Part shown: piece after piece, positions 7,580 through 41,751 of the stretch
Layout of the letters: every line of letters starts with the position of its first letter
Position numbering within the stretch: the stretch's first letter is position 1
NCBI GenBank assembly: GCA_964504535.1
Contig: CAZDED010000007.1
Span: 12,353-76,352 of the forward strand
Direction: 5' to 3'
Length of the DNA: 64,000 nucleotides
Origin: an uncultured Gammaproteobacteria bacterium
Lineage (GTDB): Bacteria > Patescibacteriota > Microgenomatia > Levybacterales > GWA1-39-11
Made by a program: the position numbers and the translations under genes
Notes under the pieces: model-generated
Database searches by the model: none
Seen by the model: the letters and a program-made list of their open reading frames with translations, nothing else
Told to the model about the DNA's origin: nothing

Positions 7580-7582
7580 GTA

Positions 7583-15703: not shown

Positions 15704-16144
15704 CTACGCGGTTGGGCTTTGCTCATCCGGCCGGAGGGCGCTGAGGCATTCCTGGACGGTGACCTCTCGAAGTCTCTTTCCGCACTTCTTGAGAAGTTCG
15801 ACCTGGAACTGCTGGATCCAAAGGCACGGGATCTGCTCTAGGTCCCTCGTGATTACTTCTCCCAGTCCGACCTGGAGCACATGAAAGCCTTGTGCCCGCA
15901 GAAAGCGGAGTTCCGGGCAATTGTTTGCCAGGCGGGGATCTCCTACCTTTTTGTCGGCAGGAAGGCTCCTGAGCCAGGTCACGAATTCCTCGTCAGTTTC
16001 CATGACCCTGGTGATCTCTTCAACTTCAGACATTACTACTCTCCTTGAGTTGTGTACTCGTGATGTGCGTGCCCCACCGCTTGTAAACGGTGTGGCTTGA
16101 CCTGCGTTGTTAATGTGCTGTTGGAACAGCACCTTCATACGCAT
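15704..16144 (-). CDS. hypothetical protein in high-GC island 3 (start uncertain; internal MSEVEEITRV... gives about 109 aa)
   Basis: ORF in GC-rich DNA between two perfect GC palindromes (15311-15330 and 16147-16164). Confidence 0.3.
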   Translation of the reverse strand: MRMKVLFQQHINNAGQATPFTSGGARTSRVHNSRRVVMSEVEEITRVMETDEEFVTWLRSLPADKKVGDPRLANNCPELRFLRAQGFHVLQVGLGEVITRDLEQIPCLWIQQFQVELLKKCGKRLREVTVQECLSALRPDEQSPTA

Positions 16145-16307
16145 GCTGCCGCCAGCTGGCGGCGCGGATTGGAACTGTTCTAACGTTGGGATAATTATAT
16201 ACCTTAGGAAGACTCAAATCAAATTACTCTAGGATACGCTTAATGGAGAATGGCTGATGGTTAAGGACTAATATCTAAACTATTGTCTATTGTCTAGTGT
16301 CTTTTGT

Positions 16308-19949: not shown

Positions 19950-20801
19950 TTACCGGTCAGTTTTTACCCACCACTTTGTTCCTTCTGCTATTACTTCAAC
20001 GTCACCCTTCAAAGTATCTTTATACGGGATGTCGTATTGCTTCAAAATATCAATTACTTGAGGTGAAGGATGATGATATCGGTTGTGATATCCATATGAA
20101 AAAAAAGCATATTTAGGCACGATATGTTGGAATGTGAACTCATCAACTCCTGTTTTTGAACCATGGTGCGGAGGCTTGAATACATCAATATAGTCCAGTT
20201 GGGGCATAATTGAATTGAGATAGGTGGATGGAATATCTCCGGTAAGGAGTGCATGAAACTTCCCATACTTAACCATCTGTACCAATGAGTAGTCATTGGT
20301 CTCCTCACTTTTAAGATCCAAAAATCCACTGGTAGGCCAGTATGTGGAAATGACTACGCCATCTTTTGTTTTTAATCCATCTCCCAAAAGTACTAAATGT
20401 TTTGGGATTTTTTTCTCTTCCAAAAGACTCATCAATTCTTTATAAACGTCCGTTCCTTTTGGTGCATTAGGTATTCCAAAATACCCTACATTATAGGACT
20501 TCACTACTCCGATGAGTCCCGCAAGGTGATCAGCATCCGGATGAGTCAGATATATTACTTCTATTGTCCTATCCCAAAAAGGCAAATGACGTGAAAGGCA
20601 ATCTGTCATGGAATTTTCATGCGGTCCACCATCAATTATTATGTCAAGACCACGAGGAGTTCGTATCAAAATCCCGTCACCCTGCCCGACATTACAAAAA
20701 ATAATATGAAATTTATTGTCAGAGAACTGCGTTAAGTGATAGGCCCCCAAAATGCACAGAAAAGACATTGATAACAACCCAAACAGCAAAATTCGCCTCA
20801 T
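19950..20801 (-). CDS. ComEC C-terminal metallo-beta-lactamase-fold domain protein (separate ORF)
   Basis: 283 aa. An N-terminal TM is followed by the MBL motifs GQGDGILI, IIDGGP and LTHPDADHLAGL. It overlaps the upstream competence-domain ORF by 4 nt (ATGA). Confidence 0.8.
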   Translation of the reverse strand: MRRILLFGLLSMSFLCILGAYHLTQFSDNKFHIIFCNVGQGDGILIRTPRGLDIIIDGGPHENSMTDCLSRHLPFWDRTIEVIYLTHPDADHLAGLIGVVKSYNVGYFGIPNAPKGTDVYKELMSLLEEKKIPKHLVLLGDGLKTKDGVVISTYWPTSGFLDLKSEETNDYSLVQMVKYGKFHALLTGDIPSTYLNSIMPQLDYIDVFKPPHHGSKTGVDEFTFQHIVPKYAFFSYGYHNRYHHPSPQVIDILKQYDIPYKDTLKGDVEVIAEGTKWWVKTDR

Positions 20802-22015
20802 TTTATGAAATTTTTCCTTTCTTTTAGTCTAATAACTACTACTAAAAGTATCAAATAGTACCCAAAAATGCATGCAATTGGTACTGTATCTATACTTATC
20901 TGTAAGTTTATTTTGGAGAATAACTCTACTATAGTCGTAAAATAAGACAGAAAATGATAGCAAAGAAGTATTAAAGGATGTGCTAGAAATGGCAGAAATA
21001 AGGAAAGCAATCCAGCAAGCCCTCCAAAAATCATTATGATTGGAATAGTCCAAAGGACTAATATATTTACCGGAAAGGAAAGTAATGAATAAGCTCCAAA
21101 GACTGTTATCATGAGAGGAAATGTAGCTATTTGAGCTGAAAGCGTCGTCGTTATATCATCTTTTATAAAACTCAAGAGTTTAAAACGTAATAAAGAATCT
21201 AGGATGGGTTTGACCGTTAATATTCCAAAAGTCGACAAAAAAGACAGTTGAAATGAAACGTCAACTATCTCTTCCGGCTGCACAAAAAGCATCGCCCACC
21301 CAGTCAGAAAAAGTACATAAATGCTACTTATTTGTCTACCGGTAAATAGTGCAGTAAATGCCAAAATCGCCATAATACTTGCCCTGACAATTGGCGGGTC
21401 AAATCCTGCTAGAACTGCATAGACCAACACTCCAAGCGCCGTGAAAAGTAATGCAAGTCTTCTTTTCACGAAGGTGCTAAAGATTACCAAAAGAAGCATT
21501 GCAGCTATGCTGACGTTCTGTCCTGAGGCTGCGATAACATGCAGTACTCCTGCATTTTTCAGCTGTTGATAATACTGACTATCTATCTTGTCTCTGACTC
21601 CTAAAATTATGCCAAGAAGGAGCCCGCCCTCTCTTGATGGTAAAGTTGTCATGACAGCATCCTCCACTTTTTGTCTTACTGATTTTGAAAAAGACAACAG
21701 AAAGTTGTGACTTTTTATCTTTGTGATCTTTGGATTTTCAACAACCAATAATTGCCCTTTTTTAGAATCTTTCTTTAGGATCTTTCCTTCTATCATTACT
21801 CTGTCTCCATAGTGAAAGGACGGATATAGTGGTAGTGTGACAAGCAACCCGTCTGTAAAAAAGTATTGAGAAAGCGAATTTTTCTTTGGCTCATGAACAA
21901 AGCTATAGGATTTTTTGTATGTTTCGTTTTCTTGATAAATATGACGCTCCTCTATCCAAAAAAACTCTCTTGTTAGTAGCGCTAAAAGTAGTATGCCGAT
22001 AAATAAGTGTTTCAT
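20798..22015 (-). CDS. comEC: ComEC/Rec2 competence-domain membrane protein (DNA internalisation channel)
   Basis: 405 aa polytopic membrane protein. The conserved core (VLHVIAASGQNVSI, GFDPPIVRAS) is typical of the ComEC competence domain. Confidence 0.8.
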   Translation of the reverse strand: MKHLFIGILLLALLTREFFWIEERHIYQENETYKKSYSFVHEPKKNSLSQYFFTDGLLVTLPLYPSFHYGDRVMIEGKILKKDSKKGQLLVVENPKITKIKSHNFLLSFSKSVRQKVEDAVMTTLPSREGGLLLGIILGVRDKIDSQYYQQLKNAGVLHVIAASGQNVSIAAMLLLVIFSTFVKRRLALLFTALGVLVYAVLAGFDPPIVRASIMAILAFTALFTGRQISSIYVLFLTGWAMLFVQPEEIVDVSFQLSFLSTFGILTVKPILDSLLRFKLLSFIKDDITTTLSAQIATFPLMITVFGAYSLLSFPVNILVLWTIPIIMIFGGLAGLLSLFLPFLAHPLILLCYHFLSYFTTIVELFSKINLQISIDTVPIACIFGYYLILLVVVIRLKERKNFIK

Positions 22016-22021
22016 TGGTAC

Positions 22022-22684
22022 CTACTCTGCCACTATCTCGTCCTTTATCCCTTCGAATGTCTTTTGTCCTAAGATTTTCTTGCTGACTAGCTCGTTTGTA
22101 TTAGAATATGGACGACCAGCAATAATCTTTCTTGCAGTTACTGGTCCAACTTTCTGAAGAGTATCTAATTCTGATTCACTCGCTGAATTTATATTGATCA
22201 TTCCATTACTTTCTACTGTTGAGGCTGAGAAGTTACTTATTGTAGTATCATGTGCCTCTACTGGTATATTTGCAGTTTGAGTCTCACCGATAGCTGGAAT
22301 ATAGATTTTGCCTCCATCTACTACTTTTTGAGCCTGGTTAAGATGCTTGCTAACATATACTCTGTCAGCAGATGATGACAAACCACCGGCTGCTATAAGG
22401 GCATCTTGAATCCTTGATCCATCTGCAAGTACATATACACCTGGATGCAGCACTTTTCCTTCAACATCAACAGAAATCTTGTTGGTAGTAGATGCCCCTT
22501 TTATATCAGTGGTTTGATTTTCACTTGATGTAAATTCAATATCTGAAGTGTCACTTATTGTGGCTAAATATTGGAACACTCCAAGAACCATAAGTAAGAC
22601 TCCAAGCACAATAAGTCCTACGAAAAGGAGATTTTTCTTGATAAATTCTAAAAGACGTTCTTGGCGGGATTGTGTTTCCTCCAC
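22022..22684 (-). CDS. comEA: ComEA DNA receptor (SLBB + helix-hairpin-helix)
   Basis: 220 aa. N-terminal TM, an SLBB-like region (KVLHPGVYVLADGSRIQDALIAAGG), and the C-terminal HhH pair INSASESELDTLQKVGPVTARKII. Confidence 0.85.
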   Translation of the reverse strand: MEETQSRQERLLEFIKKNLLFVGLIVLGVLLMVLGVFQYLATISDTSDIEFTSSENQTTDIKGASTTNKISVDVEGKVLHPGVYVLADGSRIQDALIAAGGLSSSADRVYVSKHLNQAQKVVDGGKIYIPAIGETQTANIPVEAHDTTISNFSASTVESNGMININSASESELDTLQKVGPVTARKIIAGRPYSNTNELVSKKILGQKTFEGIKDEIVAE

Positions 22685-23796: not shown

Positions 23797-26378
23797 ACAA
23801 CAAAATTCACGATCTTCCCTGGGATATAGATAACTTTTTTGACCTCAATACCTTCAAGATTTTTGCTGACCGCCTCCCTTGCCAATTTTTCAATCTGTGC
23901 ACTGTCCCCTGTACCCTGTCCGCTGACTGTTATCTCTCCCCTTCTTTTTCCGTTGATCTGAACCGGAATAATAAGATTAGAACTAATTAAATGGTACTCA
24001 TCAAACTTCGGCCATTTTTGCATATGGATAGAACTGAACCCTGCGCCCTGTTTTCTGTACCCTAAAGATTGCCATAATTCCTCAGTCATATGAGGAGCAA
24101 AAGGAGCAAGAAGCCTTAAATAAACCCCAACCTCTTCCTTACTTAATTCCTGGTTGTTTACTCTTACCTCCTGGTTGAGGGAGTTATACCATTCCATGAG
24201 TTTTGCTATTGCAGTGTTGTAGCCAAATTCGGAAATATCTTTAGTGACCCCCTGGATGGTTTTATGCATCATCATCGTCCTTTCATTACTCAATTGTGCT
24301 TCATCCTTTGATGATTGGGAAAGAAGTTTCCAGACTTTTCGTAAAAATCTATTCATTCCCTCTATTCCACTGTCCCTAAAGTCTCCACCGTCAGAGTATG
24401 GGCCTATGAACATGAGGTAAGTGCGCAACGTATCAGCCCCATATTTACCGATATACTCGTCTGGAACGACCACATTACCCTTGCTTTTACTCATCTTTGC
24501 TCCGTCTTTGATAATGAGGCCATGAGCAAAGAATGTTGAGAATGGCTCCTCGAAGTTCAAATACCCCAGATCTTTCAATACCATCGTGACAAAACGTGAA
24601 TACAAAAGGTGTAGCACACTGTGTTCTGCTCCGCCAATGTACATGTTAACCGGTAGCCACTTTCTAGTTGTTTGTATATCAAAAGGTGCTGTAGATACAT
24701 CAGTTGAGGGGTATCTAAGGAAATACCAGCTACTGTCAAGGAACGTATCTGATACATCGGTCTCTCGGGTTGCTTCTCCACCACAAGATGGACAGGTAGT
24801 CTTGTAAAATTCAGGATGATTGGCAAGTGGAGCTTTTCCTGTCCCCATTGGTTTCCAATCCTCAACATCTGGCAAAAGTATAGGAAGTTGAGCTTCGGGT
24901 ACGCAAAACCATCCCTCCATACCTTCTACCTCAGCTTTACCATTTTTTTGACAAGAGTCGCAGAAGATCATGGGTATTGGCGGCCCCCAATATCTTTGGC
25001 GGGAGATCAACCAATCACGAAGATGATAGGTTGAATGTGTCGTTGCAAAACCCTTGTCCTTGGCAAATGTAATTATTTCTTCTCTAACTTCCCCGGCTCT
25101 CCTGCCTTTAAATTCTGAGGGTTCAGCTAGAACTCCATTCACCATATCCGTATAGCAAACTTCAAGGTTTTTTACTTTTTCAGCTTCAACACTATCTTCT
25201 GGAAATAAGACCGGCTTTAACCGAATTCCATACTTCTTTGCAAAAGCAAAATCTCTTGTATCGTGAGCAGAACACTTTACTATTCCGGTTCCATAGTCTT
25301 TTAAGGCAAAATTTGCCACCCAAATAGGTAAGTCTCCATTCCCAATCGGATCTATGATGTATCTTCCTGTAAAAATTCCTTCAGGCTCTTTTTCTTCCCC
25401 TTCTCTCTCAATTGCCCTCTTATTAAGAGTCTCCTTACAAAACGCCTTAATTTCTTCCCTGTTCTCAACCCCCTCAAGTATACTTTCTAAAAATGGGTGA
25501 TCTGGTGCTATTACTACAAAGGTATCTGCATAAAATGCCTCAAAATGAGCTGAAAAAGTCTTTAGTGTTAGCTTGGTATCCTTTACTGGTGCTTCAAATA
25601 CTAATCCTTCGCTTTTTCCTATCCAATTCGTTTGGGCAATTTTAACTTTATTTGACCAGTCAAGCCCTTCAATATTTTTAAGTAGTCTGTCTGCATATTT
25701 AGTAATTCTAAAAAACCACTGCTCTAGATTTTTCTTCTCGACTTTTTCTCCACAACGCTCACAGCACCCATCTATCACCTGCTCATCAGACAAAACCGTC
25801 ATGTCTTTTGGACACCAATTTACAAGCGCAGTATCTCTGTAGGCAAGTCCCGCTTTGAAAAGTGTCACAAAAAGCCACTGAGTCCATTTATAGTAATTTG
25901 GGTTATAGGTCTCAACAGTTCTTTGCCAGTCAAATGAGTTGCCAATACTTCTCATTTGCCTATAAAAGTTCTTTTCAGCGATTTCTGCCTGTTCTTTGGG
26001 GTGTCGACCGACTTTGAGGGCGTAGTTCTCACTATGAATACCAAATCCGTCGAGTCCAATAGGCTCAAGGACATCGTTCCCTTGCATCCGTTGGAACTTT
26101 GCGTATACATCAGCACCAGTAAATGCGTACATATTACCCACATGAAGCCCCTCTGCTGATGGATATGGAAACATCATGAGGTTGAAGTATGGATCTTTTG
26201 CTGCTTTTATATCAGGGCTAAAAGTCCTGTTACTCTCCCATTTATCCTGCCATTTAGCCTCAATATCTGCTGGGGTATATTTGTTTTCTATTGACTTTTG
26301 CTGGTTCATATAGATATCTTCTATTCTATCAAATCCAACCCTAGACTTCACTATTTTTGAAGTGAGCGAATATATCAC
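23793..26378 (-). CDS. leuS: leucine--tRNA ligase
   Basis: 861 aa class I aminoacyl-tRNA synthetase. Has the HIGH-region variant (LHVGNMYAF), KMSKSKGN, and the CP1 editing insert and zinc-knuckle Cys clusters. Confidence 0.95.
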   Translation of the reverse strand: MIYSLTSKIVKSRVGFDRIEDIYMNQQKSIENKYTPADIEAKWQDKWESNRTFSPDIKAAKDPYFNLMMFPYPSAEGLHVGNMYAFTGADVYAKFQRMQGNDVLEPIGLDGFGIHSENYALKVGRHPKEQAEIAEKNFYRQMRSIGNSFDWQRTVETYNPNYYKWTQWLFVTLFKAGLAYRDTALVNWCPKDMTVLSDEQVIDGCCERCGEKVEKKNLEQWFFRITKYADRLLKNIEGLDWSNKVKIAQTNWIGKSEGLVFEAPVKDTKLTLKTFSAHFEAFYADTFVVIAPDHPFLESILEGVENREEIKAFCKETLNKRAIEREGEEKEPEGIFTGRYIIDPIGNGDLPIWVANFALKDYGTGIVKCSAHDTRDFAFAKKYGIRLKPVLFPEDSVEAEKVKNLEVCYTDMVNGVLAEPSEFKGRRAGEVREEIITFAKDKGFATTHSTYHLRDWLISRQRYWGPPIPMIFCDSCQKNGKAEVEGMEGWFCVPEAQLPILLPDVEDWKPMGTGKAPLANHPEFYKTTCPSCGGEATRETDVSDTFLDSSWYFLRYPSTDVSTAPFDIQTTRKWLPVNMYIGGAEHSVLHLLYSRFVTMVLKDLGYLNFEEPFSTFFAHGLIIKDGAKMSKSKGNVVVPDEYIGKYGADTLRTYLMFIGPYSDGGDFRDSGIEGMNRFLRKVWKLLSQSSKDEAQLSNERTMMMHKTIQGVTKDISEFGYNTAIAKLMEWYNSLNQEVRVNNQELSKEEVGVYLRLLAPFAPHMTEELWQSLGYRKQGAGFSSIHMQKWPKFDEYHLISSNLIIPVQINGKRRGEITVSGQGTGDSAQIEKLAREAVSKNLEGIEVKKVIYIPGKIVNFVV

Positions 26379-26563
26379 GAGCAGATAATGCTAGACACAA
26401 CTTACAGCCAGTCAAGATAGATCACCTCTTAATTGTTATCATAAAAAATAATTAATCCAATACGACTTTACTTCTATTTCTAATGGTAAACCTCCCCTTA
26501 CCCTTTCCTATGTGCCTTACCTTTCTTTGACTCTTTTTCAAATTTGAGATACCATTAACTTAT

Positions 26564-27184
26564 ATGAAAAGTAAACAAATTTTGGAAGGCTCCTCGATCG
26601 TTTTGGCAGTATTTACGGTCTTTATTGTGATGTCAACAGCACTTAGCGCTTATTCCACATATTTGCTAGCCATACTAATTATCTTTTCTGCAATATATAT
26701 AAGTATAAAAAAAAGATCGAAATCAGCTTCAAATTTATTCTCAGGAGGATCTGTTGAGCTGTATGGCCTGATTGCTATTATCACTCTTATGATTAGTTTG
26801 ACAAATGGCCTCAACTCCCCCCTTTTCTTCTTTACGTATTTTATATTGTTCTTACTCGCATTCTTATGCGAACCAATTACAATACTTGTGTACCTAATAT
26901 CGGCATTACTTTTCTTTATGCCTCAGGCTACGGCCAACCCCAACACAGACATGTTGATAAAAATGGGCTCATTAATTTTAATCGCACCAATAGCTTATTT
27001 TATAGGTCAAGAATTTGAGCGTAGAAAAATATTAGATGAAAAAATAGAAAGCAAAACTGATGAGATCATTCAGGAAGCGCGACTGCTAAAAGAGGATGGA
27101 AACCCTAAAGCGCAAGACGAATCTGAGGCTATTGATGAAATAATCGAAGAAGCAAGTTCTCTAAAAAAAGATTCAGAAGAATAA
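26564..27184 (+). CDS. hypothetical membrane protein with acidic coiled C-terminus
   Basis: 206 aa with 5-6 TM segments followed by an E/D/K-rich tail. Confidence 0.45.
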   Translation: MKSKQILEGSSIVLAVFTVFIVMSTALSAYSTYLLAILIIFSAIYISIKKRSKSASNLFSGGSVELYGLIAIITLMISLTNGLNSPLFFFTYFILFLLAFLCEPITILVYLISALLFFMPQATANPNTDMLIKMGSLILIAPIAYFIGQEFERRKILDEKIESKTDEIIQEARLLKEDGNPKAQDESEAIDEIIEEASSLKKDSEE

Positions 27185-27318
27185 GTACCAATACTGAAAT
27201 GAATTCTTATTTCGTTAAAAGTGATTTGAAGGCTAAATCACGCAAGTGATTGAACTAAGAAAACATATACAGGAAGACTTCACATAGCGAAGCTCCACAC
27301 CGAGCGTCACTTTTAAAG

Positions 27319-28122
27319 ATGAGAAGAAGCGACCAGAAAAGGAAATCAACTATGAAAAATTGGCCAATTTTACTACTTTTCTCACCAAAAGGAACTGCAA
27401 TATTCCTTACGCTTAACTTTGCCCTTTTTTGCTTATTCATAGGTAAGAGTATTTATGCAGAAACGATGTCTAATTCATCGTATAAAATCAGGTTTGGCAA
27501 CCTCAATTCATTTGCTGGTAAGCCTTCAAATGCCTCATACAGCCTTGGGATAACCGGAGGACAAATAGCCCCAGGTCTATATTCGGGCACAAATTTCAAG
27601 GTGAGAGCTGGGTTCCAATACATAAAGTCCATCATTCCATTCACCTTTAGCATTAGCAGCATCTTCATAGACTTTGGGCCCATAACTCCTGGCACGCCTA
27701 TCACACGCACAAATATACTTACAATTTCAAATGGTTCTGCATATGGCTACACGGTTCTTGCAAGCGAAAATCACCCTCTTTTGATCAACAGTACGGGCAT
27801 ATCAATTCCTGATACTACCTGCGACACGGGAACGTGTAGTGAGTCTGTGCCTGCAGCGTGGGCAAATCCTACAACATTTGGCTTTGGCTATCGTTGTGAC
27901 AATATTGTCGGCACTGATTGTCAATCTGGTTTTAGTACAGCTACAAATTACCGACAGTTCTCCGCAAGTAATTCAGGAGAGCTGGCCTACCCGGTAATGC
28001 GTGGGGTAAATGTAGGACGGAATATTCAAGGACAGATCACCTATAAAGTCAATGTCAGTGCTGCTCAAGCGACAGGCGAATATCAGAATGTCATCTCATT
28101 TGTTGCGGTTCCTTCAATATAA
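27319..28122 (+). CDS. secreted WxL-like domain protein (Tyr variant), short paralogue C
   Basis: 267 aa (likely start MKNWPILLL at 27352). GSAYGYTVLASENHPL and the C-terminal TGEYQNVISFVAVPSI match paralogues A and B. Confidence 0.5.
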   Translation: MRRSDQKRKSTMKNWPILLLFSPKGTAIFLTLNFALFCLFIGKSIYAETMSNSSYKIRFGNLNSFAGKPSNASYSLGITGGQIAPGLYSGTNFKVRAGFQYIKSIIPFTFSISSIFIDFGPITPGTPITRTNILTISNGSAYGYTVLASENHPLLINSTGISIPDTTCDTGTCSESVPAAWANPTTFGFGYRCDNIVGTDCQSGFSTATNYRQFSASNSGELAYPVMRGVNVGRNIQGQITYKVNVSAAQATGEYQNVISFVAVPSI

Positions 28123-28591
28123 ATCTAACAGCAAACCTGACAGTAGGTGCATCTTCTCTAAATCATGGTTATCCGAGATAGCTATTTTTCACGGTCATTT
28201 TTTTACCTTTGCACATCAATATCTTAATTCGGTGCCTCATAGGTAATTTTAATTATATGTGGATTTATATCATTTGAGTACCGATAGATTCTCTAAAATC
28301 CAAACTTTCACCAATTTGTCGATTATACTATGCCCATAGGCTAAAACCCTCTTTTTTAAGCCTATCACTCAGGACTATCAAATGCTGAGATGCAAGTCAT
28401 TCGCACATAATTTTACCTGATATACTTTGATATACTCTATAGTTTTAACGGCAAAAAATACTATTTCCAAATATATCAAACGTTGCCTATTACCGCGTAT
28501 TAGAAATATTCTAGAAATTTGAGGTTAAATTTTTTTACCGCAGAAGATGATTCACCGTGAAATAAAGAGTATTCTTTCCTTTTAAAATGAT

Positions 28592-29584
28592 TTGGGATAC
28601 TATAAATGTATGAAAAGAAAAGCTATTTTTCGCATACTTATCCTTCTTGTATTTCTCTCTATAGCAAAAAGTAACATCTTTGCCCAAGAACAATCCTTAA
28701 GTATTTTTCCTCCGGTAATAGAGGTCCAAACCACTCCTCCATCTTCACCTTTAACCCCAATCACTATCCAAAATAATGCAGAAAATGACCTTAAGTTAAA
28801 AATTGAACTTATACCGTTCAAAACAAACAACATTACTGGTGAAATAAGACTAGTTCCAAATGATATTTCTAAAGGTTTTTATCCATACTACCGTGACCGT
28901 ATTCAGTTTTTAGTTGATGGTAAAAAGACAGATACGGTTATTCTAGCACCCCTTGAATCCAAGCAAGTTGAACTCAATATAAATCTAGCAAAAGGCGATC
29001 CTCCCGGTGATTACTATTACTCTATTGTTTTTATCAACCAACAAGAGGCTTCTTCAGGCTCAAGTGTGTCTCAAATGCCGGCAGGAATTGCTACAAATCT
29101 TCTCCTTTCTATCGGACCAAAAGATCAGTCATCAGGATCAATTTCCCAGTTCAAAACATCATCATTTAAAACAAATGGTCCTGTTGATTTTGAGCTTAAA
29201 ATTCACAATTCTAGTAAACATCTTATCAACCCTACGGGATCTATTCAGATTAAAAATCTTTTTGGCCAAACGGTAGGCGCTGTTAAAATCTTGCCTCAGT
29301 ACATACTTGCTGGTTCAGATAGGTTTATGCTTGATGATAAACAAAGCTCGCCTGAGGCTCAACTAGCCTCTCAGCAACTCAACTCTACCCCTAAAGTCAT
29401 ATGGCCGGAAAAATTCTTACTTGGCTGGTACGAGGCAAAGGCTACGATATTACTTGAGGAGGATGGCAGAAAATACACACAATCACTCTACTTCTTTGCC
29501 TTTCCACTTTACCTTTTCTTCCCACTGGTTACAGCAATATTTATTGCACTCAGCGTTTACCTCAGAGTGAAAAAGAAAATATAG
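28592..29584 (+). CDS. DUF916/DUF3324-like cell-surface protein with C-terminal membrane anchor (paralogue of 10908-11906)
   Basis: 330 aa. Signal peptide, PPGDYYYSIVFINQQEA and SIQIKNLFGQTVGA motifs shared with 10908-11906, then a C-terminal TM (LYLFFPLVTAIFIALSVYL) and basic tail RVKKKI. Confidence 0.55.
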   Translation: MGYYKCMKRKAIFRILILLVFLSIAKSNIFAQEQSLSIFPPVIEVQTTPPSSPLTPITIQNNAENDLKLKIELIPFKTNNITGEIRLVPNDISKGFYPYYRDRIQFLVDGKKTDTVILAPLESKQVELNINLAKGDPPGDYYYSIVFINQQEASSGSSVSQMPAGIATNLLLSIGPKDQSSGSISQFKTSSFKTNGPVDFELKIHNSSKHLINPTGSIQIKNLFGQTVGAVKILPQYILAGSDRFMLDDKQSSPEAQLASQQLNSTPKVIWPEKFLLGWYEAKATILLEEDGRKYTQSLYFFAFPLYLFFPLVTAIFIALSVYLRVKKKI

Positions 29585-30274
29585 ATCAGCTTAGAGTGCG
29601 AAAGAATGCCTAAATAACCCCCATAAATACCTTCAAACCAAAGAAGCCTATTTATATTCCTATAGCGACAGCCCATATGTATAACCGGAGTATAAAAAAA
29701 TCAATTTAGATTATGAATAATGGATAATTTAAATTTACAATCCTTATCACTCTATGCTTATAAATGATTTTTACTGTCCGATAATTCTCAAGTTAAGATT
29801 AAGATTGTTCTCTTTTCTCTGATTAATGTATATCCCAATAGTATATTATTTTCACATGACTATTACTTCTTATCTTTCACGAAAAGCTTCCAAAGGAGGC
29901 AATTTTTTTTGTTTGTAACTATCCTAAAGTAATTTTTGAGGCTAATACATCACTTTGATCTACTCTTTTTACCAGATTTTTGTGATTTCAAAAAAAACTT
30001 TTTTGTCCTAAAAATGCCTCAAGCAATTGTTGGTATTTAATGTATCCAAATATAACATAATGCATCACAGCCTCAGAACTACTCTTGACAGCGTGGTATA
30101 AGATTCTTTACTCTGTTTATACCCATGAAAAATATGGCGTGTAAACTATATAATCGGTATAATTTTGAGGCTAAATACACTACTTGCGGTAATAAATTTT
30201 TTTGGTTTTTTGCGTTATTAAATGATAATGAAAATATATCCTCTAGCTTTTCACGATAAATACCCATTCTGCCT

Positions 30275-33200
30275 ATGGAATTACTAGAACTATTCAAAAG
30301 ACAATTAGCATCTACACCTAACACTTCTTCCAAGAATACGATCAAGAATTATGTCTCCGACGTGCGTCATTTTATCTCCTGGTTTGAGGCTGTTACAGCT
30401 TCAAAATTTGAAGCTAGTTCTATCACTCCTGATGTGATTCTTCTCTACCAAAACAGCATGGGAGGCCTCCTTTTGGATGGTCAATTACAAATCAACAGCC
30501 AACTTTCAGCGGCGTCCATGAAAAGACACTTATCCTCAATTCGTAAGTTTTTCACAGTGCTTGAGGGAGAAAATATACTCCGTGAAAACCCTTTTAAAAA
30601 AATTGTCACGGAAGAGACAGTAGAACCGACCGACTATTGGCACCTAAAGTCATTCAGGGATTATCTGATGATGGGAAAGGCATCAAAGATCACTGTCAAG
30701 AATTATCTATCAGACATTTCGGGCTTTGCACGTTGGTATGAAGAAGCGGTTCTTCCAACTGTAGAAAATCCGGTAAGTTCAAATCAGGGATTTTATCTTA
30801 TTACTCAAGCAATTGTTGAGGATTATAGAAAAAGACTTGTTGAAATCCAAAATGCTGCTCCTAGAACTATCAACAGAAAACTCTCAGCTCTAAGACGTTA
30901 TTTGGAATTTGCTACAAAAAAAGGTTTTATCACAAATCGGGAGATAAATATAAGCTCGGTTGAAGCTGAAATCGCTCAAGAGGTTCAGGATCTACCGAAA
31001 GTTCCCCTATCTGAAATATCCACACAACTAACTCCACAGAAGCGAATGTATTCAAAAATACCACCGGTTCGATTAGTTCAAAAACTATTTGTTAACCCCT
31101 ATCTTCTCCTCGAAGAAGGTGCTGCCAATGCAATAACTACCTTTCTCATCGGTAAAAAAGTGACAGGCATTGCAAATCTTCCTCAGAAATTATCTGCTCA
31201 AATTGTCGCTAAAAATGCTCTTAGGGTTCAAAATCAAGGATTAAGCACTCTTCTTAGCGTAAGAAATATAGAGAAAGAATTCTATGCCCCAGAAAAAATT
31301 TCTCTCTCAGGTCTTCCCATACACCAAAAACTGTTCCATCATGTCAGATTTAATAGACCTAATTGGTATAAAAGATATCATAACTATGCATTTGTTCATT
31401 ACATCCACTTCGCTCTCCTTGTTATTTTTGCATCAGGTGTAGGAGTTGCTTTATATCAAAATTTAGTTGTCCAAAAACAAACACCAACCTTTGCCGCCGC
31501 TACTGCTCCACCGAGAATTTTGTCTTTTCAGGGAAGACTTACCGATGCACTCGACAATCCAATTACCTCACCTCAACCAGTGAGGTTCATGATTTATAAC
31601 AGCCTTGCTGCAACTGGAGCTGCAGAGCTTTGGGAAGAGACAAGGACAATTTCTCCCGACCAGGATGGTATATTTTCTGTACTTTTGGGTAGCGACTCAA
31701 CTGGTGCTAACGCGTCATCCTGCGGATCATTCCCGCCAGGAAGTCCATATAATACTGCTTGTCTTATCCCTTCAACGGTATTTTCAGACAATAGCCAAAT
31801 TTGGCTTGGAGTTACTATTGCCAATAGCACTGAGCTTGCACCTCGTCAAAAAATAGCTACCGTCGGATACGCTAGCAATTCAGAATTCCTTCAAGGGTTA
31901 CCACCAACTTCAGCAGTCAGTAGCTTTGTAAATGCAGTTCTTGCACTTGACAGTACTGGAAGTTTTAACCTAAATGATGGAATTGAACATACATTTCAGG
32001 TAAGTAACGGCACCCTCACCCTAAAAGCTCAAACCCTAAATTTAACTACTAGTCTTGGTACAAATGGTAATATAATCTTGAATCCTGAGGGATCAGGTAA
32101 GGTCGACATTCAAAAACCTATTATCAACAATTCAAATACCGGCAATCTTGTGCCTGGTGGGGTTGAGATTAATGATAAGTTTGGAGTCCTTGCTACCGAA
32201 TCAGCAGTAGCTGCTTTTATAGTAAATAACAATACCACAGGTGGTGATATTTTTGCAGCCTCATCTTCAGGTACAACGAGATTCAAAATTGCAAATGATG
32301 GATCAATCACCTCAGGCTTTTATACCGGTCAAAATGCAGTGCTCTATGGCACTCAAACAACAGGAGTGATAGGTCAAGTAACTACCGCTTCAACGGGACT
32401 TTGCCTTCAATCCGGAGCTTCCCTCCCTACCTGGGGAACATGCGGAACCAGCTACTGGAATCTCACTACTGACAATGGTGCACTAACCCCATTCAGTAGC
32501 ACACTTGACTTGCTTATTGGCGGTCAATCAACAGCTTCTGCTAAATTTGCTTTCATCAATAATGCTTCAGGGTCACCTACCGCTTCGATATCTGGCAATT
32601 TATCAATTGCAGTGCCAACTGGAGCCAATGGGGCAAATCTTTTCAATATCTTTAACGGGGGAAGCCTTAACTTTCAAACCTCAGGAGGTGGTAACGCTGG
32701 CCTTACTTCCCGTCTCTTTATAGCAAATGACGGCAGAATCGGCATCGGAACTACGAGCCCATTTAGTAGAAATGCTTTAGATATCAGGGGATTAAGTGGA
32801 ACATCTTCAACAGCTTCTATCTCTGCTACTTCTTCATATGCAACTCTCGTTGTTGATAATGCAGGCAGTGGGGATCTTATAGCAGCGAGCGCCTCTGGAG
32901 TTCCCAACTTTGTAGTCAAAAATAATGGAGACATAATTGTTGGACCTGGTGGTGGAGGAAAAATTACGGCAGCTATCATTGACCCATATCTTATTCAAAA
33001 TCAAAAAACAACAGGAATCCAAAGCCTCACTTTCCAAACCCTAGGTGCTTCAAATGCTGATTTTGTCTTTCAGAATACAAGCACAACCCTCTCAACACTG
33101 ACAATGGCAGGTCAATTCCAATTGCCAATAACCGGATCTACTGGTGGAATTGTACTAGGTGGTGATACTCAATTATTTAGGGGGGCTGCTGACAGAATTG

Positions 33201-36200
33201 ACATTGCGGCAAATGACTCTCTTAACTTTCTTTCTGGATCTGGAGGATTACTAACTAATGGAACAACAAGGATAGATGCATCGGGTAATGGGACATTTGC
33301 AAATATTAATATTACTGGTACATGCACAGGATGTATAACTACTGGAAATTCTCCTTTCTATGTGTCAGAGGGTACGATTGTCCCAGGTAATACAACTGAA
33401 GACTTTATATTGGGAGGAACAGCATCAAGTAGTGCCCGATTTATTGTAAATGGCCTTGCAACAGGAATTGCACCAACTGCATCGATATCTGCTACTAATG
33501 GTAACGGAATATATCTTTCAGCACAAAATAGTACAGTCCAAACACTCAGGAATAACACACTGTCAATTGGAGGAAATACAACCGGTGCCGTAGCTATCAA
33601 TCCACTAGCCACAAATTTTACTGGTGTTGGCACCTCTAACCCGATGGCCTCGCTGGATATCAGAGGTTCGCTCGGCATTATTGGTGGAGGGACACTTGCA
33701 GTTGCTTCAATTTCTGGTAGAACATCATATGCAGCACTAGCTATAGACAACTTAAATACCGCAGGTGACCTGTTCACCGCTTCGTCTTCCTCGAATATGC
33801 AATTCGTGATCAAAAACAACGGATTTGTTGGCTTTGCAACAGCCGCCCCTACTGCCCGACTTGACGTCAATGGTTCGGCCTCAATTTCTAGTGCGCTAAC
33901 ATTTAGAACTGGCTCCGGAACTATTCAAACTTCAGCTAGCAATTCTCTTACTATAGGGGGCAATACAACTGGTTTTATAACAATCGATTCAGGCTCAGGA
34001 CTTGTGAATATTTTAGACAATACTAATATATCGGGTGCACTCACCGGCCTTACAGGGCTGACTCTAGCCAGTGGGGGCATAACATTAGGGGGAACAGTTG
34101 GTACAGGTACTCAATGTCTCCTTGGTGGTGCAACAGCCTCATGGGGCTCTTGTGGTAGCGGCGGAACCTCTCCCTTCCAATATACTACCTCGCCTACTGG
34201 TGCCATAATACCTATTAATTCTACCGTAGATTTTCTCATTGGTGGACAAGCAACCGAAAGTGCAAAATTTTCCATTCTCAATATAGCTGGAGGAACACCT
34301 ACGGCCTCAATTTCAGCTAATTCAGGTAATAATGCTGTCTATCTAACAGGAGATGGTACACTTGCAACAACAAATAGGCGTACGTTGACTATAGGCAATT
34401 CCTCAACATATGACACAACAGGAAATGTCCTGATCAACCCTAACGGAACAGGAAATGTTGGCATAGGCACAAATACATCAACTGTAAAACTAGAAATAGT
34501 TGATAATAATGGTACGGGAGGAATATTATTAAACGGACCCGTTAACGATACAGCCAACATTAGGTTTAGAAATACTAATCAGACTCCAAGCGATTTTAAT
34601 ATTGATTATGCAGGAGCAACTCTCAGATTTTTTACTGAAACAGGACTTGGCACTGGTGGAGTTTATAGAGGCGGGATTACGAATAATGGGCTCTTTGGAC
34701 TTGGAGTATCAGTACCGAGCTCCGAACTTCATGTATCGCGTCTTCTTACCCAACAAACCGCAACTGGTAAGGCCTTAGTACTATTTGATCAAAATGAAAA
34801 TCAAGATATTTTCACCGCTTCAGCATCAGGCACAACACGCTTTGTAATCCAGAACGATGGAGACGTTGGCATTGGAACCGATAGCCCACTAGCACCCCTT
34901 CATTTATCCGGATCTTCCCGTTCTATTTACCTGTCGGATGCTGGTCAATCCATAAGCTCCCAATGGTTCCTTTCTCCTGGTGCCAATAACTACCTTAATG
35001 GTACTGCTGCTGGCGATGGAGGAATAAAATTTCATTCAACTACTGGCTCCTTCGTAATAGGCCGAGATACAGGCAGTGTTGAATTTAAAATAACAAACAC
35101 TGGGAATCTAGGACTCGGAACGTACTATTCCCCCACAGGTGTTAATCCAACAGCAAAATTACAAGTATATTCTCTTGGCACCACCCCAGTAGCCTCAATT
35201 TCCGGTAAGACTTCTGGTCCTACTCTACTTCTATCAAATGATGGAACTGGTGATATTCTAGCTGCTTCAGTATCAGGAGTTCAAAAGTTCAGGATCAATG
35301 CTGCAGGAGATCTTATTGTTGGAGACGGATCAGGCAAGATATATGGTGGAGGATTTGATCCACTATTCACAATCGATGGCAAGAAATTCTCTACATACGC
35401 TTCTGGTATTAACGGTATGAAGGAAGAATATATCGGTAGTGCAAATCTTGCTTATGATGCAGCTGCTGGTGGGTACGCATATACTCTGGACTTCAACAAT
35501 TTTGAGTACGGCAGTGAATTGTGGACCTTCTCCCGTGTAATTGACCCTGATCTGACGAAAGTCAATGTCCTTCTCACCCCCACCTCACAGGCAAGGACAT
35601 GGTTCCGCCGTGACCCAGTCAACAGAAAACTCATACTTTATTCCGACCGCCCAACCAGTGTTACATTTAGGTTCACTGCTCCCCGCTTTGACTATGCTCT
35701 GTATCCATCTTCAAATCATTCCCATGATATTGCTGGTTTACAAGCACCAGTAGCACCAAACACTATCGGAACTGGCGAGGCTGATCCAATGGATTCTTTC
35801 CTTGCTTCCCTCTCAATTCAGTTCAATAATGGTCTATTTGTAGTATTGGATGGATTTGGCAACATGGTTCACCGGGTCGATGGATTCTCAAATCTCATCG
35901 CAGCAAATCTTGAAGCTGGTTTTATTCATACAAGAAATCTAGCAGCAGACACTTTGTCAGCTGGAAGTGCTTCACTTGGCAACGCAACCGCAAATACTTT
36001 TGCCGTTGCTGCAAATACAATCACAATTGGTGGAAAAGACATCAGACAATTTATCATAGATACTGTCACAGCAGCAGGATTTGGCCAAAATACAATCATT
36101 TCACCGTTAGCAGAAGTTGAAACGATAAAAACAAACACCATTCGTCCTCTAGCCGACGGTGGGGATATAACTGTAAAAGGAAAACTCATTACTGAGTCAG

Positions 36201-37177
36201 ATAAATCAGCTACTGATAGTGCTAGTATCTCACTTGACGTGAGAGGATCAGCTTCCATATCAGGCAATCTCACTGTAAACAATATACAAACCAATAATGC
36301 AACTCTTGCAGGATCTCTTACAACAACAAATGCCTCAATAAGTGGCACCCTTGCCGCAAGGGATATCAACGTTAATCAGCTTCAAATCCGTGATAATCTT
36401 AAGGTAGGCACTGTACGGGCAGATTTTGGAATATTTGAACAAGGAATAACCTCAATGGGGCCTGTAACTGCAAATATCTTAACCGCAACAGACCAATTAG
36501 CGGTAGGCAGCAACTTCACCATCTCAAATAATGCGATAAATACCGTAGGAACAGATCTTGCTATCCAGTCTTTGAGGCAAGGAGATATCGCATTTCAAGG
36601 TGGGCTTATCCGAATGGACACGGATGGCAATATGACAGTTAATGGTAATTTCAATCTTCTCGGGGAAATTGATGCAGTTCATGGAGTATTTAGCGGTACA
36701 CTCACTACCCCTGCCTTGGCAACCGACCTTATCTCACCGGTTGCGGATTCAAATATCTCCCTTTCATTCAAAGATTCTAAATTCAATATTCAGAATTCCA
36801 AAACTGCTACTGGAAGCGCTGTTCTTTCTATAGACAATAAAGGGAACATCCAGTCATCAGGATCTGCAACATTTGCAAAACTCAACTTCAATCTGGTTGG
36901 GAAGGCTGAGGCTACTAGCCTTACCGAAGCTGTTGCAACGGGAAGCGCTGGATTTGCTACGTTAAGAGCGGGACAACCAGAACTAACTATAAAGAACAGG
37001 ATCATCACACCAAAATCATTGATCTATATCACACCATTTGGAAATACTGACAACAAAGTCCTTTACCTGCTCCGTCAAATACCTGACTCTGACACCGAAG
37101 ATGGGTCATTTACAATAGGGATTTCTGGCCAAGTTCCAAATCATGATATACAATTTAACTGGTTGGTTGTGAATTAA
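30275..37177 (+). CDS. giant (2300 aa) membrane-anchored surface protein: two tandem integrase SAM-like N-terminal domains, one TM, tail-fibre-like repeat ectodomain
   Basis: Residues ~1-120 and ~135-235 each look like the XerC/D-type core-binding domain (KNYVSDVRHFISWF...SMKRHLSSIRKFF; VKNYLSDISGFARWY...INRKLSALRRYLEF). A TM helix follows (FVHYIHFALLVIFASGVGVALY). About 1900 aa of Gly/Thr/Ser-rich repeats carry recurring GIGTTSP..L.V-type motifs known from tail-fibre-like beta-helical proteins. Confidence 0.8.
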   Translation: MELLELFKRQLASTPNTSSKNTIKNYVSDVRHFISWFEAVTASKFEASSITPDVILLYQNSMGGLLLDGQLQINSQLSAASMKRHLSSIRKFFTVLEGENILRENPFKKIVTEETVEPTDYWHLKSFRDYLMMGKASKITVKNYLSDISGFARWYEEAVLPTVENPVSSNQGFYLITQAIVEDYRKRLVEIQNAAPRTINRKLSALRRYLEFATKKGFITNREINISSVEAEIAQEVQDLPKVPLSEISTQLTPQKRMYSKIPPVRLVQKLFVNPYLLLEEGAANAITTFLIGKKVTGIANLPQKLSAQIVAKNALRVQNQGLSTLLSVRNIEKEFYAPEKISLSGLPIHQKLFHHVRFNRPNWYKRYHNYAFVHYIHFALLVIFASGVGVALYQNLVVQKQTPTFAAATAPPRILSFQGRLTDALDNPITSPQPVRFMIYNSLAATGAAELWEETRTISPDQDGIFSVLLGSDSTGANASSCGSFPPGSPYNTACLIPSTVFSDNSQIWLGVTIANSTELAPRQKIATVGYASNSEFLQGLPPTSAVSSFVNAVLALDSTGSFNLNDGIEHTFQVSNGTLTLKAQTLNLTTSLGTNGNIILNPEGSGKVDIQKPIINNSNTGNLVPGGVEINDKFGVLATESAVAAFIVNNNTTGGDIFAASSSGTTRFKIANDGSITSGFYTGQNAVLYGTQTTGVIGQVTTASTGLCLQSGASLPTWGTCGTSYWNLTTDNGALTPFSSTLDLLIGGQSTASAKFAFINNASGSPTASISGNLSIAVPTGANGANLFNIFNGGSLNFQTSGGGNAGLTSRLFIANDGRIGIGTTSPFSRNALDIRGLSGTSSTASISATSSYATLVVDNAGSGDLIAASASGVPNFVVKNNGDIIVGPGGGGKITAAIIDPYLIQNQKTTGIQSLTFQTLGASNADFVFQNTSTTLSTLTMAGQFQLPITGSTGGIVLGGDTQLFRGAADRIDIAANDSLNFLSGSGGLLTNGTTRIDASGNGTFANINITGTCTGCITTGNSPFYVSEGTIVPGNTTEDFILGGTASSSARFIVNGLATGIAPTASISATNGNGIYLSAQNSTVQTLRNNTLSIGGNTTGAVAINPLATNFTGVGTSNPMASLDIRGSLGIIGGGTLAVASISGRTSYAALAIDNLNTAGDLFTASSSSNMQFVIKNNGFVGFATAAPTARLDVNGSASISSALTFRTGSGTIQTSASNSLTIGGNTTGFITIDSGSGLVNILDNTNISGALTGLTGLTLASGGITLGGTVGTGTQCLLGGATASWGSCGSGGTSPFQYTTSPTGAIIPINSTVDFLIGGQATESAKFSILNIAGGTPTASISANSGNNAVYLTGDGTLATTNRRTLTIGNSSTYDTTGNVLINPNGTGNVGIGTNTSTVKLEIVDNNGTGGILLNGPVNDTANIRFRNTNQTPSDFNIDYAGATLRFFTETGLGTGGVYRGGITNNGLFGLGVSVPSSELHVSRLLTQQTATGKALVLFDQNENQDIFTASASGTTRFVIQNDGDVGIGTDSPLAPLHLSGSSRSIYLSDAGQSISSQWFLSPGANNYLNGTAAGDGGIKFHSTTGSFVIGRDTGSVEFKITNTGNLGLGTYYSPTGVNPTAKLQVYSLGTTPVASISGKTSGPTLLLSNDGTGDILAASVSGVQKFRINAAGDLIVGDGSGKIYGGGFDPLFTIDGKKFSTYASGINGMKEEYIGSANLAYDAAAGGYAYTLDFNNFEYGSELWTFSRVIDPDLTKVNVLLTPTSQARTWFRRDPVNRKLILYSDRPTSVTFRFTAPRFDYALYPSSNHSHDIAGLQAPVAPNTIGTGEADPMDSFLASLSIQFNNGLFVVLDGFGNMVHRVDGFSNLIAANLEAGFIHTRNLAADTLSAGSASLGNATANTFAVAANTITIGGKDIRQFIIDTVTAAGFGQNTIISPLAEVETIKTNTIRPLADGGDITVKGKLITESDKSATDSASISLDVRGSASISGNLTVNNIQTNNATLAGSLTTTNASISGTLAARDINVNQLQIRDNLKVGTVRADFGIFEQGITSMGPVTANILTATDQLAVGSNFTISNNAINTVGTDLAIQSLRQGDIAFQGGLIRMDTDGNMTVNGNFNLLGEIDAVHGVFSGTLTTPALATDLISPVADSNISLSFKDSKFNIQNSKTATGSAVLSIDNKGNIQSSGSATFAKLNFNLVGKAEATSLTEAVATGSAGFATLRAGQPELTIKNRIITPKSLIYITPFGNTDNKVLYLLRQIPDSDTEDGSFTIGISGQVPNHDIQFNWLVVN

Positions 37178-37224: not shown

Positions 37225-37887
37225 ATGGACCCTAATCAATCTGCCAATTCTGTTCCTCCAAGGAAAGTACCACATCTACCCATATCAGAAGCTGAAAGTC
37301 ACCCGGAGATATATCAAGACGATCTTTCAAGTTCAAAGAATGCCCTTCTCACACTGGCTTCTTTACTAATTCTTGTCGGGATTATCGGAATTACTCTTTG
37401 GCTCTATATTCAGAATAAAACTGGAATTCAAGTTACATACCAATCAAAAAAAGAAGATACTAATAAAAGCTCTTCCAATATTCAAAAAAACCAAGCAACT
37501 TCTATTAACACCATGAGAAGTAAAGAGCTTATAAATAAGTATGGAACTGTTTGCAAAAGGTTTACAATACTTGAGGATGCCCTTAAAACTCCAGAAATCG
37601 TCTGTACGCTAGACTTATCAAATCAGGGTCTCAAAAGCCTAACAAAAGAGATTGGACAGTTCAAACAATTACATACCATAATATTGTCAAACAATAACTT
37701 GGAAATCTTTCCAAAAGAACTATACAGTTTATCTTCTTTAATAAGTATAGACTTCAGAAATAATCAACTAACAGAAAATCCGGATTTCAACAAATTTCCA
37801 AATCTTCAGTCTATAGAGCTTTCGGGAAATAAAATTTCTGAGAAAATTACAATTAAACGATTCCCTCCTCTAGTCATACAGTATTAA
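37225..37887 (+). CDS. leucine-rich-repeat protein with N-terminal TM
   Basis: 220 aa. One TM, then LRRs (LDLSNQGLKSL, LSNNNLEIFPKEL, DFRNNQLTENPD, LSGNKISEK). Confidence 0.55.
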   Translation: MDPNQSANSVPPRKVPHLPISEAESHPEIYQDDLSSSKNALLTLASLLILVGIIGITLWLYIQNKTGIQVTYQSKKEDTNKSSSNIQKNQATSINTMRSKELINKYGTVCKRFTILEDALKTPEIVCTLDLSNQGLKSLTKEIGQFKQLHTIILSNNNLEIFPKELYSLSSLISIDFRNNQLTENPDFNKFPNLQSIELSGNKISEKITIKRFPPLVIQY

Positions 37888-40737: not shown

Positions 40738-41751
40738 CTATTGATTTGCACGAATTGAGCCTGTTTGCGTATTTCCCTGATCATCTGTTCCGACAATATC
40801 ATACCCATAATGGGTGTATGTATCGGTCACTTGCCATGTTCCGGTCCATGTTCCACTCTGGGCAGTTCCGCCAGTTCTTGAGAGTGTAAATTCACGGGCA
40901 TCTCCATCAGAATAAAGGATAGCCTTCATAGACGTTATGTTGCCTACAGTGTCATCAGCCAGTACCTGAATTGACTGTGCTAGCCCAATAGTCTGATATA
41001 ACGGCATGACTGTTACTTGATAGATGTCAGGATTTACGCCTGCATGGTTACCCAAATTATAAGTGACTGATCCTACTGGAGGAGTTGGTGTTGGAGTTGG
41101 CGTAGCAGATGGCAATGGCGTAGGTGTAGGCGTTGGACTTATAGACTCCACGCCTCCAGCGATAGAAGAAGCTGAAGCAAGAGCACTACAATTTACAGCA
41201 CCTGACAGGGTGCATGCCCATACCCCACTGGTATATCCGCTTGGAGTACAATCTGACAATGATGACAGAGGACATACATTGGTCAATGCAGAAGATTTAC
41301 TGACTTGAGAAAAAATTACATTCCATTGAGGACAAGAGGCAGTGGATTCTGTTCTATACTTATAGCATTCTCCAGTCCCACCATTACATTTTGGATCCTG
41401 AGGAACCTTCTTCATATATGTAGTGTCATTCACTTTCCACTCCTGGCCAAATGGGAGCTGAGCCGGATAACATTTTGTATCACTGTAGTAAAGATCAACT
41501 GCAGTTTTTATAGCCTGAAGGTCTGCTAGTCTTTGTGTATCTTGCCCTTTATTGATCTGAGCAATTGGATTTAAGGTCAGAAGCACTCCACCGATAAGAG
41601 TTGAGAGTATTGTTGCAGCTACCAATACCTCGACGAGAGTAAAACCAAATTTAGGAGATATGAGATGGGAGATGGAAGATGGGAATTCATTTTTTCCCAA
41701 ACTCCTAACTCCTAACTTCTTTTTGGTAATTAATTTTTGGGCAGTATTCAT
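40738..41751 (-). CDS. type IV pilin-like protein (prepilin N-terminal cleavage/methylation domain)
   Basis: The class III signal KFG|FTLVEVLVAATILSTLIGGVLL has the conserved Glu at +5. A Pro/Thr linker (TPTPTPLPSATPTPTPTPP) and a C-terminal globular domain follow. Confidence 0.7.
   Translation of the reverse strand: MNTAQKLITKKKLGVRSLGKNEFPSSISHLISPKFGFTLVEVLVAATILSTLIGGVLLTLNPIAQINKGQDTQRLADLQAIKTAVDLYYSDTKCYPAQLPFGQEWKVNDTTYMKKVPQDPKCNGGTGECYKYRTESTASCPQWNVIFSQVSKSSALTNVCPLSSLSDCTPSGYTSGVWACTLSGAVNCSALASASSIAGGVESISPTPTPTPLPSATPTPTPTPPVGSVTYNLGNHAGVNPDIYQVTVMPLYQTIGLAQSIQVLADDTVGNITSMKAILYSDGDAREFTLSRTGGTAQSGTWTGTWQVTDTYTHYGYDIVGTDDQGNTQTGSIRANQ

Follow-up and report, generated by a model that had tools for sequence, protein, structure and literature searches.

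Pam pili are thought to mediate contact with the host and, to our knowledge, are so far the sole structurally defined filaments of bacteria of the candidate phyla radiation (CPR, or Patescibacteria) that are not of type IV. In this study, we analyzed a stretch of 64,000 nucleotides (assembly GCA_964504535.1, contig CAZDED010000007.1, positions 12,353 to 76,352; hereafter, the window) that contains two neighboring genes at 27319–29584, here called A3 and B2. A first-pass annotation had described them as a WxL-like gene and a DUF916-like gene, and as the second copy of a pairing found elsewhere in the window (genes A1, B1, and A2). Both open reading frames (ORFs) are present with the coordinates and lengths annotated there (Table 1). 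Our results make it quite probable that this pair is half of a Pam pilus locus of the Microgenomates type in a CPR bacterium, as a divergent member of that system. It is best read as a tip pilin and a membrane-anchored chaperone of a Pam pilus rather than as a WxL pair for cell-wall anchoring.

The Pam system itself has been known only since 2026, from a preprint on cryo-electron microscopy of filaments of Ca. Mycosynbacter amalyticus and from the NCBIfam models derived from that work (10.64898/2026.03.03.709456). PamA and PamB are two-domain pilins with paired cysteines that are connected through donor-strand exchange, in which the donated strand is a conserved linker. PamT is a single-domain protein and the candidate tip, PamC and PamD are FimC/PapD-like chaperones that each have a transmembrane helix at the C-terminus, and PamR is an RbmA-like anchor or terminator, also with a C-terminal transmembrane helix (10.64898/2026.03.03.709456). 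A "tail fibre-like protein" is found in pam neighborhoods, and Pam homologs are present in Saccharimonadia and Microgenomatia (10.64898/2026.03.03.709456). The WxL clusters, which occur mainly in Lactobacillales and Bacillales, encode small WxL, large WxL, and WxLIP proteins. WxLIP consists of DUF916 (PGBD), DUF3324 (HBD), and a transmembrane segment, and the WxL domain is a C-terminal domain of 160–190 aa with two Trp-x-Leu motifs (PMC9772566, PMC10599100).

The locus in the window matches the Pam system part by part. A3 corresponds to PamT as a single-domain pilin, and A1 and A2 correspond to the two-domain pilins, with which A3 shares a common C-terminal Ig-like domain. B2 and B1 correspond to the two PapD-like, membrane-anchored chaperones with C-terminal transmembrane helices, and a giant ORF corresponds to the fiber-like neighbor gene. 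Big6 is a candidate for the PamR-type anchor. Paired cysteines (four in A3 and six in the long pilins), the conserved linker of the long pilins, and the CPR host are also common to both systems, and the relatives of the locus come from the Microgenomates group. The locus differs from the described Pam system in being very divergent, with bit scores of about 13–30% of the curated cut-offs, and in its simpler cluster, which has one long pilin type (duplicated in the window) instead of PamA/B/E. Furthermore, it has a membrane protein gene, TM206, universally linked upstream, for which a description as a Pam component was not found. The locus is also split, and the putative pilus of this lineage is known from genes alone.

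Pilin-like and chaperone-like proteins of the locus

The A3 family comprises at least 696 clusters, all of which are without names. A look-up of the cluster members returned uninformative names, and the exact A3 protein was absent from the contig index. All relatives identified are from CPR/Patescibacteria metagenome-assembled genomes (MAGs) or unlabeled contigs. The family has a signal peptide, an extremely conserved N-terminal segment of ~55 aa, and a domain with four invariant cysteines (Cys168, Cys173, Cys193, and Cys201). Two models of NCBIfam release 20 recognize it. NF058579 (CPR-type pilus protein PamT) matched A3 with an E-value of 9.3e-8 (residues 29–265 against 6–239 of 241) and was matched by 47 of the 48 A3-family members, the best with 1.8e-15. 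NF058581 (Pam pilus system pilin subunit, Pam_pilin_C) was matched by all 48 members (best, 1.5e-14). Pfam gave no match for A3, A1, or A2, and PDB sequence-profile searches with the profiles of A3, B2, and the long family gave nothing meaningful. The C-terminal domain of A3 is a β-sandwich in the AlphaFold2 (AF2) model, with a predicted local distance difference test score (pLDDT) of ~90. Its top Foldseek matches in PDB were the pilins CfaB, FimG, FimF, PapA, and CsuA/B, and TasA (E = 5e-3 to 2e-2, TM-scores of 0.26–0.50). One A3 homolog of 424 aa (P0077) is fused to PF05635.

The 267-aa ORF of A3 ends in ...GEYQNVISFVAVPSI. Its true start is likely ATG 27352 (MKNWPILL...), slightly downstream of the start of the ORF, and that of B2 is likely ATG 28610 (MKRKAIF...). 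These positions are preferred because of homolog lengths and an AGGA-type ribosome-binding site: AAAAGGAAA precedes ATG 27352, A3 from this codon has 256 aa, equal to the length of most homologs, and B2 from 28610 has 324 aa, the same as its closest homologs.

Pairwise BLAST between A3 and the two long proteins was marginal (E = 0.008 and 0.001). Profile comparison with hhalign aligned the A3 family with the long family at Prob 96–97% (E = 1e-9 to 9e-11) over 146 columns, covering the C-terminal domain only, and the C-domain of A2 aligned with A3 at E = 9e-11. At the level of sequence profiles, homology to the A3 domain is clear for the C-terminal ~150 residues of the long proteins, and through this shared domain A3 is their short paralog. 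The relationship of A3 to A1 and A2 that the first-pass annotation had proposed is thus weak in pairwise alignment and clear by profiles. A1 matched NF058581 with E = 0.0015 (residues 342–487, 18.6 bits against a cut-off of 55 bits), and 21 of 50 long-family members matched the same model, the best with 2.5e-8. The long pilins have six invariant cysteines, and the segment 258–282 between their N- and C-terminal parts is among their most conserved stretches. The long pilin is duplicated in the window, and the two copies, A1 and A2, flank B1.

B2 has a signal peptide, and its AF2 model (pLDDT 91) shows two β-sandwich domains and a C-terminal transmembrane helix at 306–329, followed by RVKKKI. 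BLASTP aligned B2 with B1 over 219 aa (E = 7e-13, 21% identity), covering the motifs IKNLFGQxV and PGxxYxxIV, from which the two had first been recognized as similar. The B1 and B2 families aligned over 277 columns in hhalign (Prob 99.9%, E = 2e-32), and the two proteins are full-length paralogs. Because of these BLASTP and hhalign matches of the B pair, together with those of the A families, the shared motifs reflect homology and not chance.

The label "DUF916-like" given to B1 and B2 was borne out. PF06030 is DUF916, and its current name is "WxLIP peptidoglycan-binding domain". It is sub-threshold in B1 and B2 themselves (B1, E = 2e-4) and is matched by 31 of 52 B2-family members (best, 1e-10). 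PF11797 itself had no match in the B family. For comparison with real WxL systems, we used 68 Firmicutes loci found with the published WxLIP motif NQIDKxxxYFDLK, from which 57 WxLIP, 76 small WxL, and 16 large WxL proteins were taken; the motif scan itself gave Firmicutes matches only. The B1 family aligned with Firmicutes WxLIP over 269 columns, corresponding to both domains (Prob 97%, E = 9e-11), and the B2 family aligned in the N-terminal domain (E = 4e-9). The top Foldseek matches of B2 were solved WxLIP structures of E. faecium (9i1y and 9i25_C, E = 1e-10), followed by the chaperones CsuC, CfaA, Caf1M, and DraB (E = 1e-8 to 1e-7), and SafB and YadV (to 1e-6). The predicted fold of B2 is that of the chaperones of chaperone-usher systems.

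Gene order in relatives and the split locus

Gene order was analyzed in 80 metagenome loci containing A3 relatives with 48–91% identity, in which ORFs were labeled with family-specific hidden Markov models (HMMs). In all 45 loci with enough sequence, A3 is immediately followed by B2. TM206 is located directly upstream of the A3 homolog in 58 of 58 loci, with a 4-bp overlap in 11 of them. Among 29 informative loci, B2 is followed by a long A gene in 20, giving a full cluster, and by the giant protein in 8, as in the window. B1 follows the long A gene in 18 of 19 loci. In a MAG of Levybacteria, which belong to the Microgenomates group, and in an ENA contig, the genes stand in one row: LeuRS (minus strand), a membrane protein of ~200 aa, A3-like, B2-like, long A, and B1-like, and this row ends with an Ig-domain protein, encoded on the opposite strand, and the giant protein. 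The gap between A3 and B2 is shorter than 100 bp in most relatives, and mostly the genes are less than 50 bp apart or overlap.

This conservation of pilin-then-B order across related loci means that A3 and B2 almost certainly function together. The first-pass annotation had already argued that the two families work together, and the adjacency of A3 and B2 and of the long gene and B1 provides stronger evidence for that conclusion than was available to it. Its argument from a second copy elsewhere, however, does not stand, since the two pairs lie side by side (A3-B2-long-B1) in most relatives. As the genes form one cluster there, and as the closest relative (L072, 91% identity) shares the split, the two pairs are halves of one old cluster broken by rearrangement in this lineage, and not independent occurrences.

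In the window, the two parts of the locus are 14 kb apart. Both the split arrangement and the 488-bp A3-B2 spacer recur in L072. In full clusters, Big6 orthologs adjoin B1 and close the cluster on the opposite strand; the Big6 gene of the window lies on the same strand as the other genes. The change of strand of the Big6 gene and the position of the long pilin copies on both sides of B1 point to an inversion or translocation of the module 9344–13458.

The A3-B2 spacer is ~70% identical to that of L072 and contains conserved blocks. One of these, CGCGtATTAGAAATATTCTAGAAATTTGAGGTTAAAT, holds a short inverted repeat, TAGAA-ATA-TTCTA, at 28501–28513. Rfam gave no match in 26000–31000, and promoter and terminator scans of the spacer were no better than shuffled sequences, with one short AT-rich hairpin only. 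TM206 had only sub-threshold Pfam matches and thus no recognizable family; it has conserved motifs, and its hydrophobic stretches look like those of a small helical inner-membrane protein. In the closest relatives, an extra gene of 125 aa lies between the TM206 and A3 homologs (L072, 9627–10004; L073, 91–468). It has 23S_rRNA_IVP/bAvd-like Pfam matches, overlaps the start of A3, and is absent from the window.

Big6 matched Pfam Big_6 with an E-value of 4e-6. The giant ORF matched TIGR02224 (E = 7e-19) and NF053851 Bdello_MAT_N (E = 1.5e-6). Of the 80 metagenome loci, 32 have it after the cluster, and it is also present in the relatives L001–L003, L072, and L073. Its composition is that of an odd fusion, with two N-terminal Phage_int_SAM (XerC/XerD-type core-binding) domains, a fiber-like region, and long repeats.

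Table 1. Features of the two parts of the putative pilus locus in the window
Feature	Position	Strand	Description
Big6	8391–9281	+	Ig-like (Big_6/CarboxypepD_reg-like) domains, membrane-anchored
A1	9344–10807	+	Long two-part pilin-like protein of PamA/B/E type: N-terminal region, conserved linker, Pam pilin C-terminal domain
B1	10908–11906	+	DUF916/WxLIP-family chaperone-like protein, membrane-anchored; old paralog of B2
A2	12001–13458	+	Second long pilin-like copy, 54% identical to A1
TM206	26564–27184	+	Polytopic membrane protein with acidic C-terminal tail
A3	27319–28122	+	267-aa ORF; PamT-like single-domain pilin, proposed tip subunit
A3-B2 spacer	28123–28609		488 bp, lineage-specific
B2	28592–29584	+	330-aa ORF; membrane-anchored two-Ig-domain protein, DUF916/WxLIP family
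Giant fiber-like surface protein	30275–37177	+	2300 aa, XerC/D-type core-binding domains at the N-terminus

Assembly model and alternative readings

We propose an assembly pathway for this locus. The homologies, the predicted folds, the membrane topology that a signal peptide together with a C-terminal helix implies, and the strict order of pilin gene before chaperone gene were observed here. For strand donation, the pairing of chaperones with pilins, the position of A3 at the tip, and growth without an usher, the model draws on the M. amalyticus study and on chaperone-usher biology. A3 would be a secreted tip pilin of the PamT kind, whose Ig-like domain would be completed by a strand of another protein. 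B2 would be exported by Sec and tethered in the cytoplasmic membrane by its C-terminal helix, and it most likely captures newly exported A3 by giving a strand to its putatively incomplete Ig-like domain. A3 would then be handed over when the linker strand of a long pilin (A1 or A2) replaces the strand of B2, that is, by donor-strand exchange. B1 would do likewise for the long pilins. The filament would grow without an usher from the cytoplasmic membrane of a cell that has no outer membrane. TM206, Big6, and the giant fiber protein are conserved companions of these genes.

The chaperone-usher pili of Gram-negative bacteria (Pap/Fim, Caf1, CFA/I, and archaic Csu) share with this locus the two-domain chaperone fold of B2 (Foldseek E = 1e-8 to 1e-6), and their pilins are the best, if weak, fold matches of A3. 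By analogy, donor-strand complementation and exchange are likely to be the assembly principle here as well. In contrast to these pili, the locus belongs to a cell with neither an outer membrane nor an usher, and scans with Pfam and NCBIfam found no usher-like gene among the conserved cluster genes. Here, the chaperone is held in the cytoplasmic membrane, the long pilins carry an extra N-terminal domain, and sequence similarity to chaperone-usher proteins was not detectable.

Several points weigh against the assignment to the Pam system. The bit scores of A3 were 31.8 for PamT, an equivalog-type model with a curated cut-off of 240 bits, and 14.8 for Pam_pilin_C against a cut-off of 55. All of the scores are far below the curated cut-offs, and the proteins are therefore distant relatives of the Saccharimonadia proteins, not equivalogs. 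A2 itself matched no Pam model, and no model in the NCBIfam scan matched B1 or B2. The equivalence of B1 and B2 to PamC and PamD is suggested by predicted fold and architecture. No Foldseek match of A3 in PDB reached E ≤ 1e-3, the pilin fold matches being weak, and in mature A3 the first 55 residues, although highly conserved, had a pLDDT below 50. The study on which the assignment draws is a preprint whose assembly model is itself largely based on AlphaFold. In addition, B2 matched RbmA of V. cholerae (E = 5e-10), and this fold is the one assigned to the terminator PamR.

The RbmA match would suit a different division of roles within a Pam-type pilus, in which B2 (or B1) is a PamR-like terminator or anchor that caps the base of the filament with its own N-terminal strand. 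PamR also has a transmembrane helix at its C-terminus, and since the Microgenomates cluster contains two B genes, one of them could fill this role. We regard this assignment as unlikely. The TM-scores of B2 are lower for RbmA (0.23–0.28) than for WxLIP and CfaA/CsuC (0.34–0.42 by query and up to 0.61 by target). Furthermore, B1 and B2 are paralogs over their full length and each directly follows a pilin gene, which fits dedicated chaperones, and Big6 is a separate membrane-anchored Ig protein, conserved in the cluster, that could be the anchor.

Still less likely is a WxL/Csc-type complex, in which A3 as the small protein and A1/A2 as the large ones would attach non-covalently to peptidoglycan by a WxL-like C-terminal domain and B1/B2 would be stabilizing WxLIP anchors, forming a static platform on the surface without a filament. 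B1 and B2 are true members of the DUF916/WxLIP family and are homologous to WxLIP in sequence and structure, including the C-terminal transmembrane helix. The cluster also has the minimal WxL composition of a small protein, a large protein sharing its C-terminal domain, and a transmembrane-anchored two-Ig protein (PMC9772566, PMC10599100). However, neither Trp-x-Leu motif is present in the A proteins: at the equivalent positions, A3 has GYTV and SFVA, whereas A1 and A2 have GYxV/I and TYVA. Pfam WxL (PF13731) had no match at E ≤ 10 among the 48 A3-family members, the only hits being scattered and sub-threshold. Comparison of the A domain with real small and large WxL proteins by hhalign gave Prob 0.2–3% (P = 0.017–0.6), whereas the positive control, small against large WxL, gave Prob 99%. 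Superfamily profiles merged from A3 and the long C-domains on one side and small and large WxL on the other did no better.

Three motif blocks are in register in these non-significant alignments, namely IDFG, LTiSNGSAyGYxVxA against VTDxRGtxAGWxL, and GxYxNxItYIAxP against YxttLTWtLxDxP, and their collinearity speaks for a WxL relationship. When 1218 CPR ORFs were ranked with a merged WxL HMM, the A3 family also came first, but of 21 control HMMs with shuffled or reversed columns, 1–2 gave the same ranking. On the evidence as a whole, a WxL-like nature of the A family is possible but not established, and the label "WxL-like" given to A3, A1, and A2 was not supported. The 50 best fold matches of A3 did not include the long-WxL chain of 9i25, and both A3 and the long family match Pam pilin models significantly. 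The taxon, furthermore, is CPR and not Firmicutes, no LPxTG partner was seen at the locus, and WxL proteins are described as peptidoglycan-bound platforms and not as filaments.

The idea that these are unrelated secreted proteins, neighbors by chance or by shared regulation only, could appeal to the 488-bp spacer, with which A3 and B2 may not be co-transcribed in this lineage, but it is effectively refuted by the adjacency of A3 and B2 in 45 of 45 loci at 48–91% identity and by the repetition of the pairing in the long pilin and B1.

Relation to WxL clusters and other features of the window

If the pair belongs to a Pam pilus, its chaperones connect two systems that have been described separately. 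As shown here for B1 and B2, chaperones of the Pam type are members of a family known from Firmicutes, DUF916/WxLIP. The preprint mentions neither WxL nor DUF916 (10.64898/2026.03.03.709456), and our literature search found no paper tying WxL or DUF916 clusters to CPR bacteria. The coupling of TM206 with the PamT-like gene, which is invariable and often translational, also seems to be new with respect to the preprint. With the chaperones in this family, it becomes a testable hypothesis that WxL clusters and Pam pili share an origin. We tentatively consider that the Pam pilus and the Firmicutes WxL/Csc clusters might be two branches of one ancient monoderm system of membrane-anchored chaperones and strand-complemented subunits, with WxL domains as diverged pilin-type domains. 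In that case, the W-x-L strands may correspond to the Y-x-V/Y-x-A strands of the Pam pilin C-domains. If so, WxLIP would have to be seen as a chaperone or assembly factor instead of a host-binding adhesin, and the claim that only CPR bacteria possess the Pam machinery would be contradicted.

The locus thus offers a testable link to the surface clusters of the WxL type in enterococci, listeriae, and lactobacilli, which are poorly understood. It also gives a template for the Microgenomates group, consisting of a membrane protein, a PamT-like pilin, a chaperone, a long pilin, a chaperone, an Ig-anchor, and a giant fiber, which helps to annotate hundreds of CPR genes labeled "hypothetical" because they score under the present NCBIfam cut-offs.

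GC-rich islands are present in the window at 7100–8150 (~53% GC), 15200–16150 (~47%), and 48900–50000 (55–70%), and the rest of the window has ~39% GC. They contain long overlapping ORFs on both strands without a Pfam match. Foreign insertions, an assembly chimera, or unusual genes are possible explanations. Other nearby surface and uptake genes are located at 37225–37887, 40738–41751, and 19950–22684. They comprise a leucine-rich repeat (LRR) protein, a protein resembling type IV pilins whose N-terminus has a methylation motif, and the competence genes ComEA/ComEC adjoining LeuRS.

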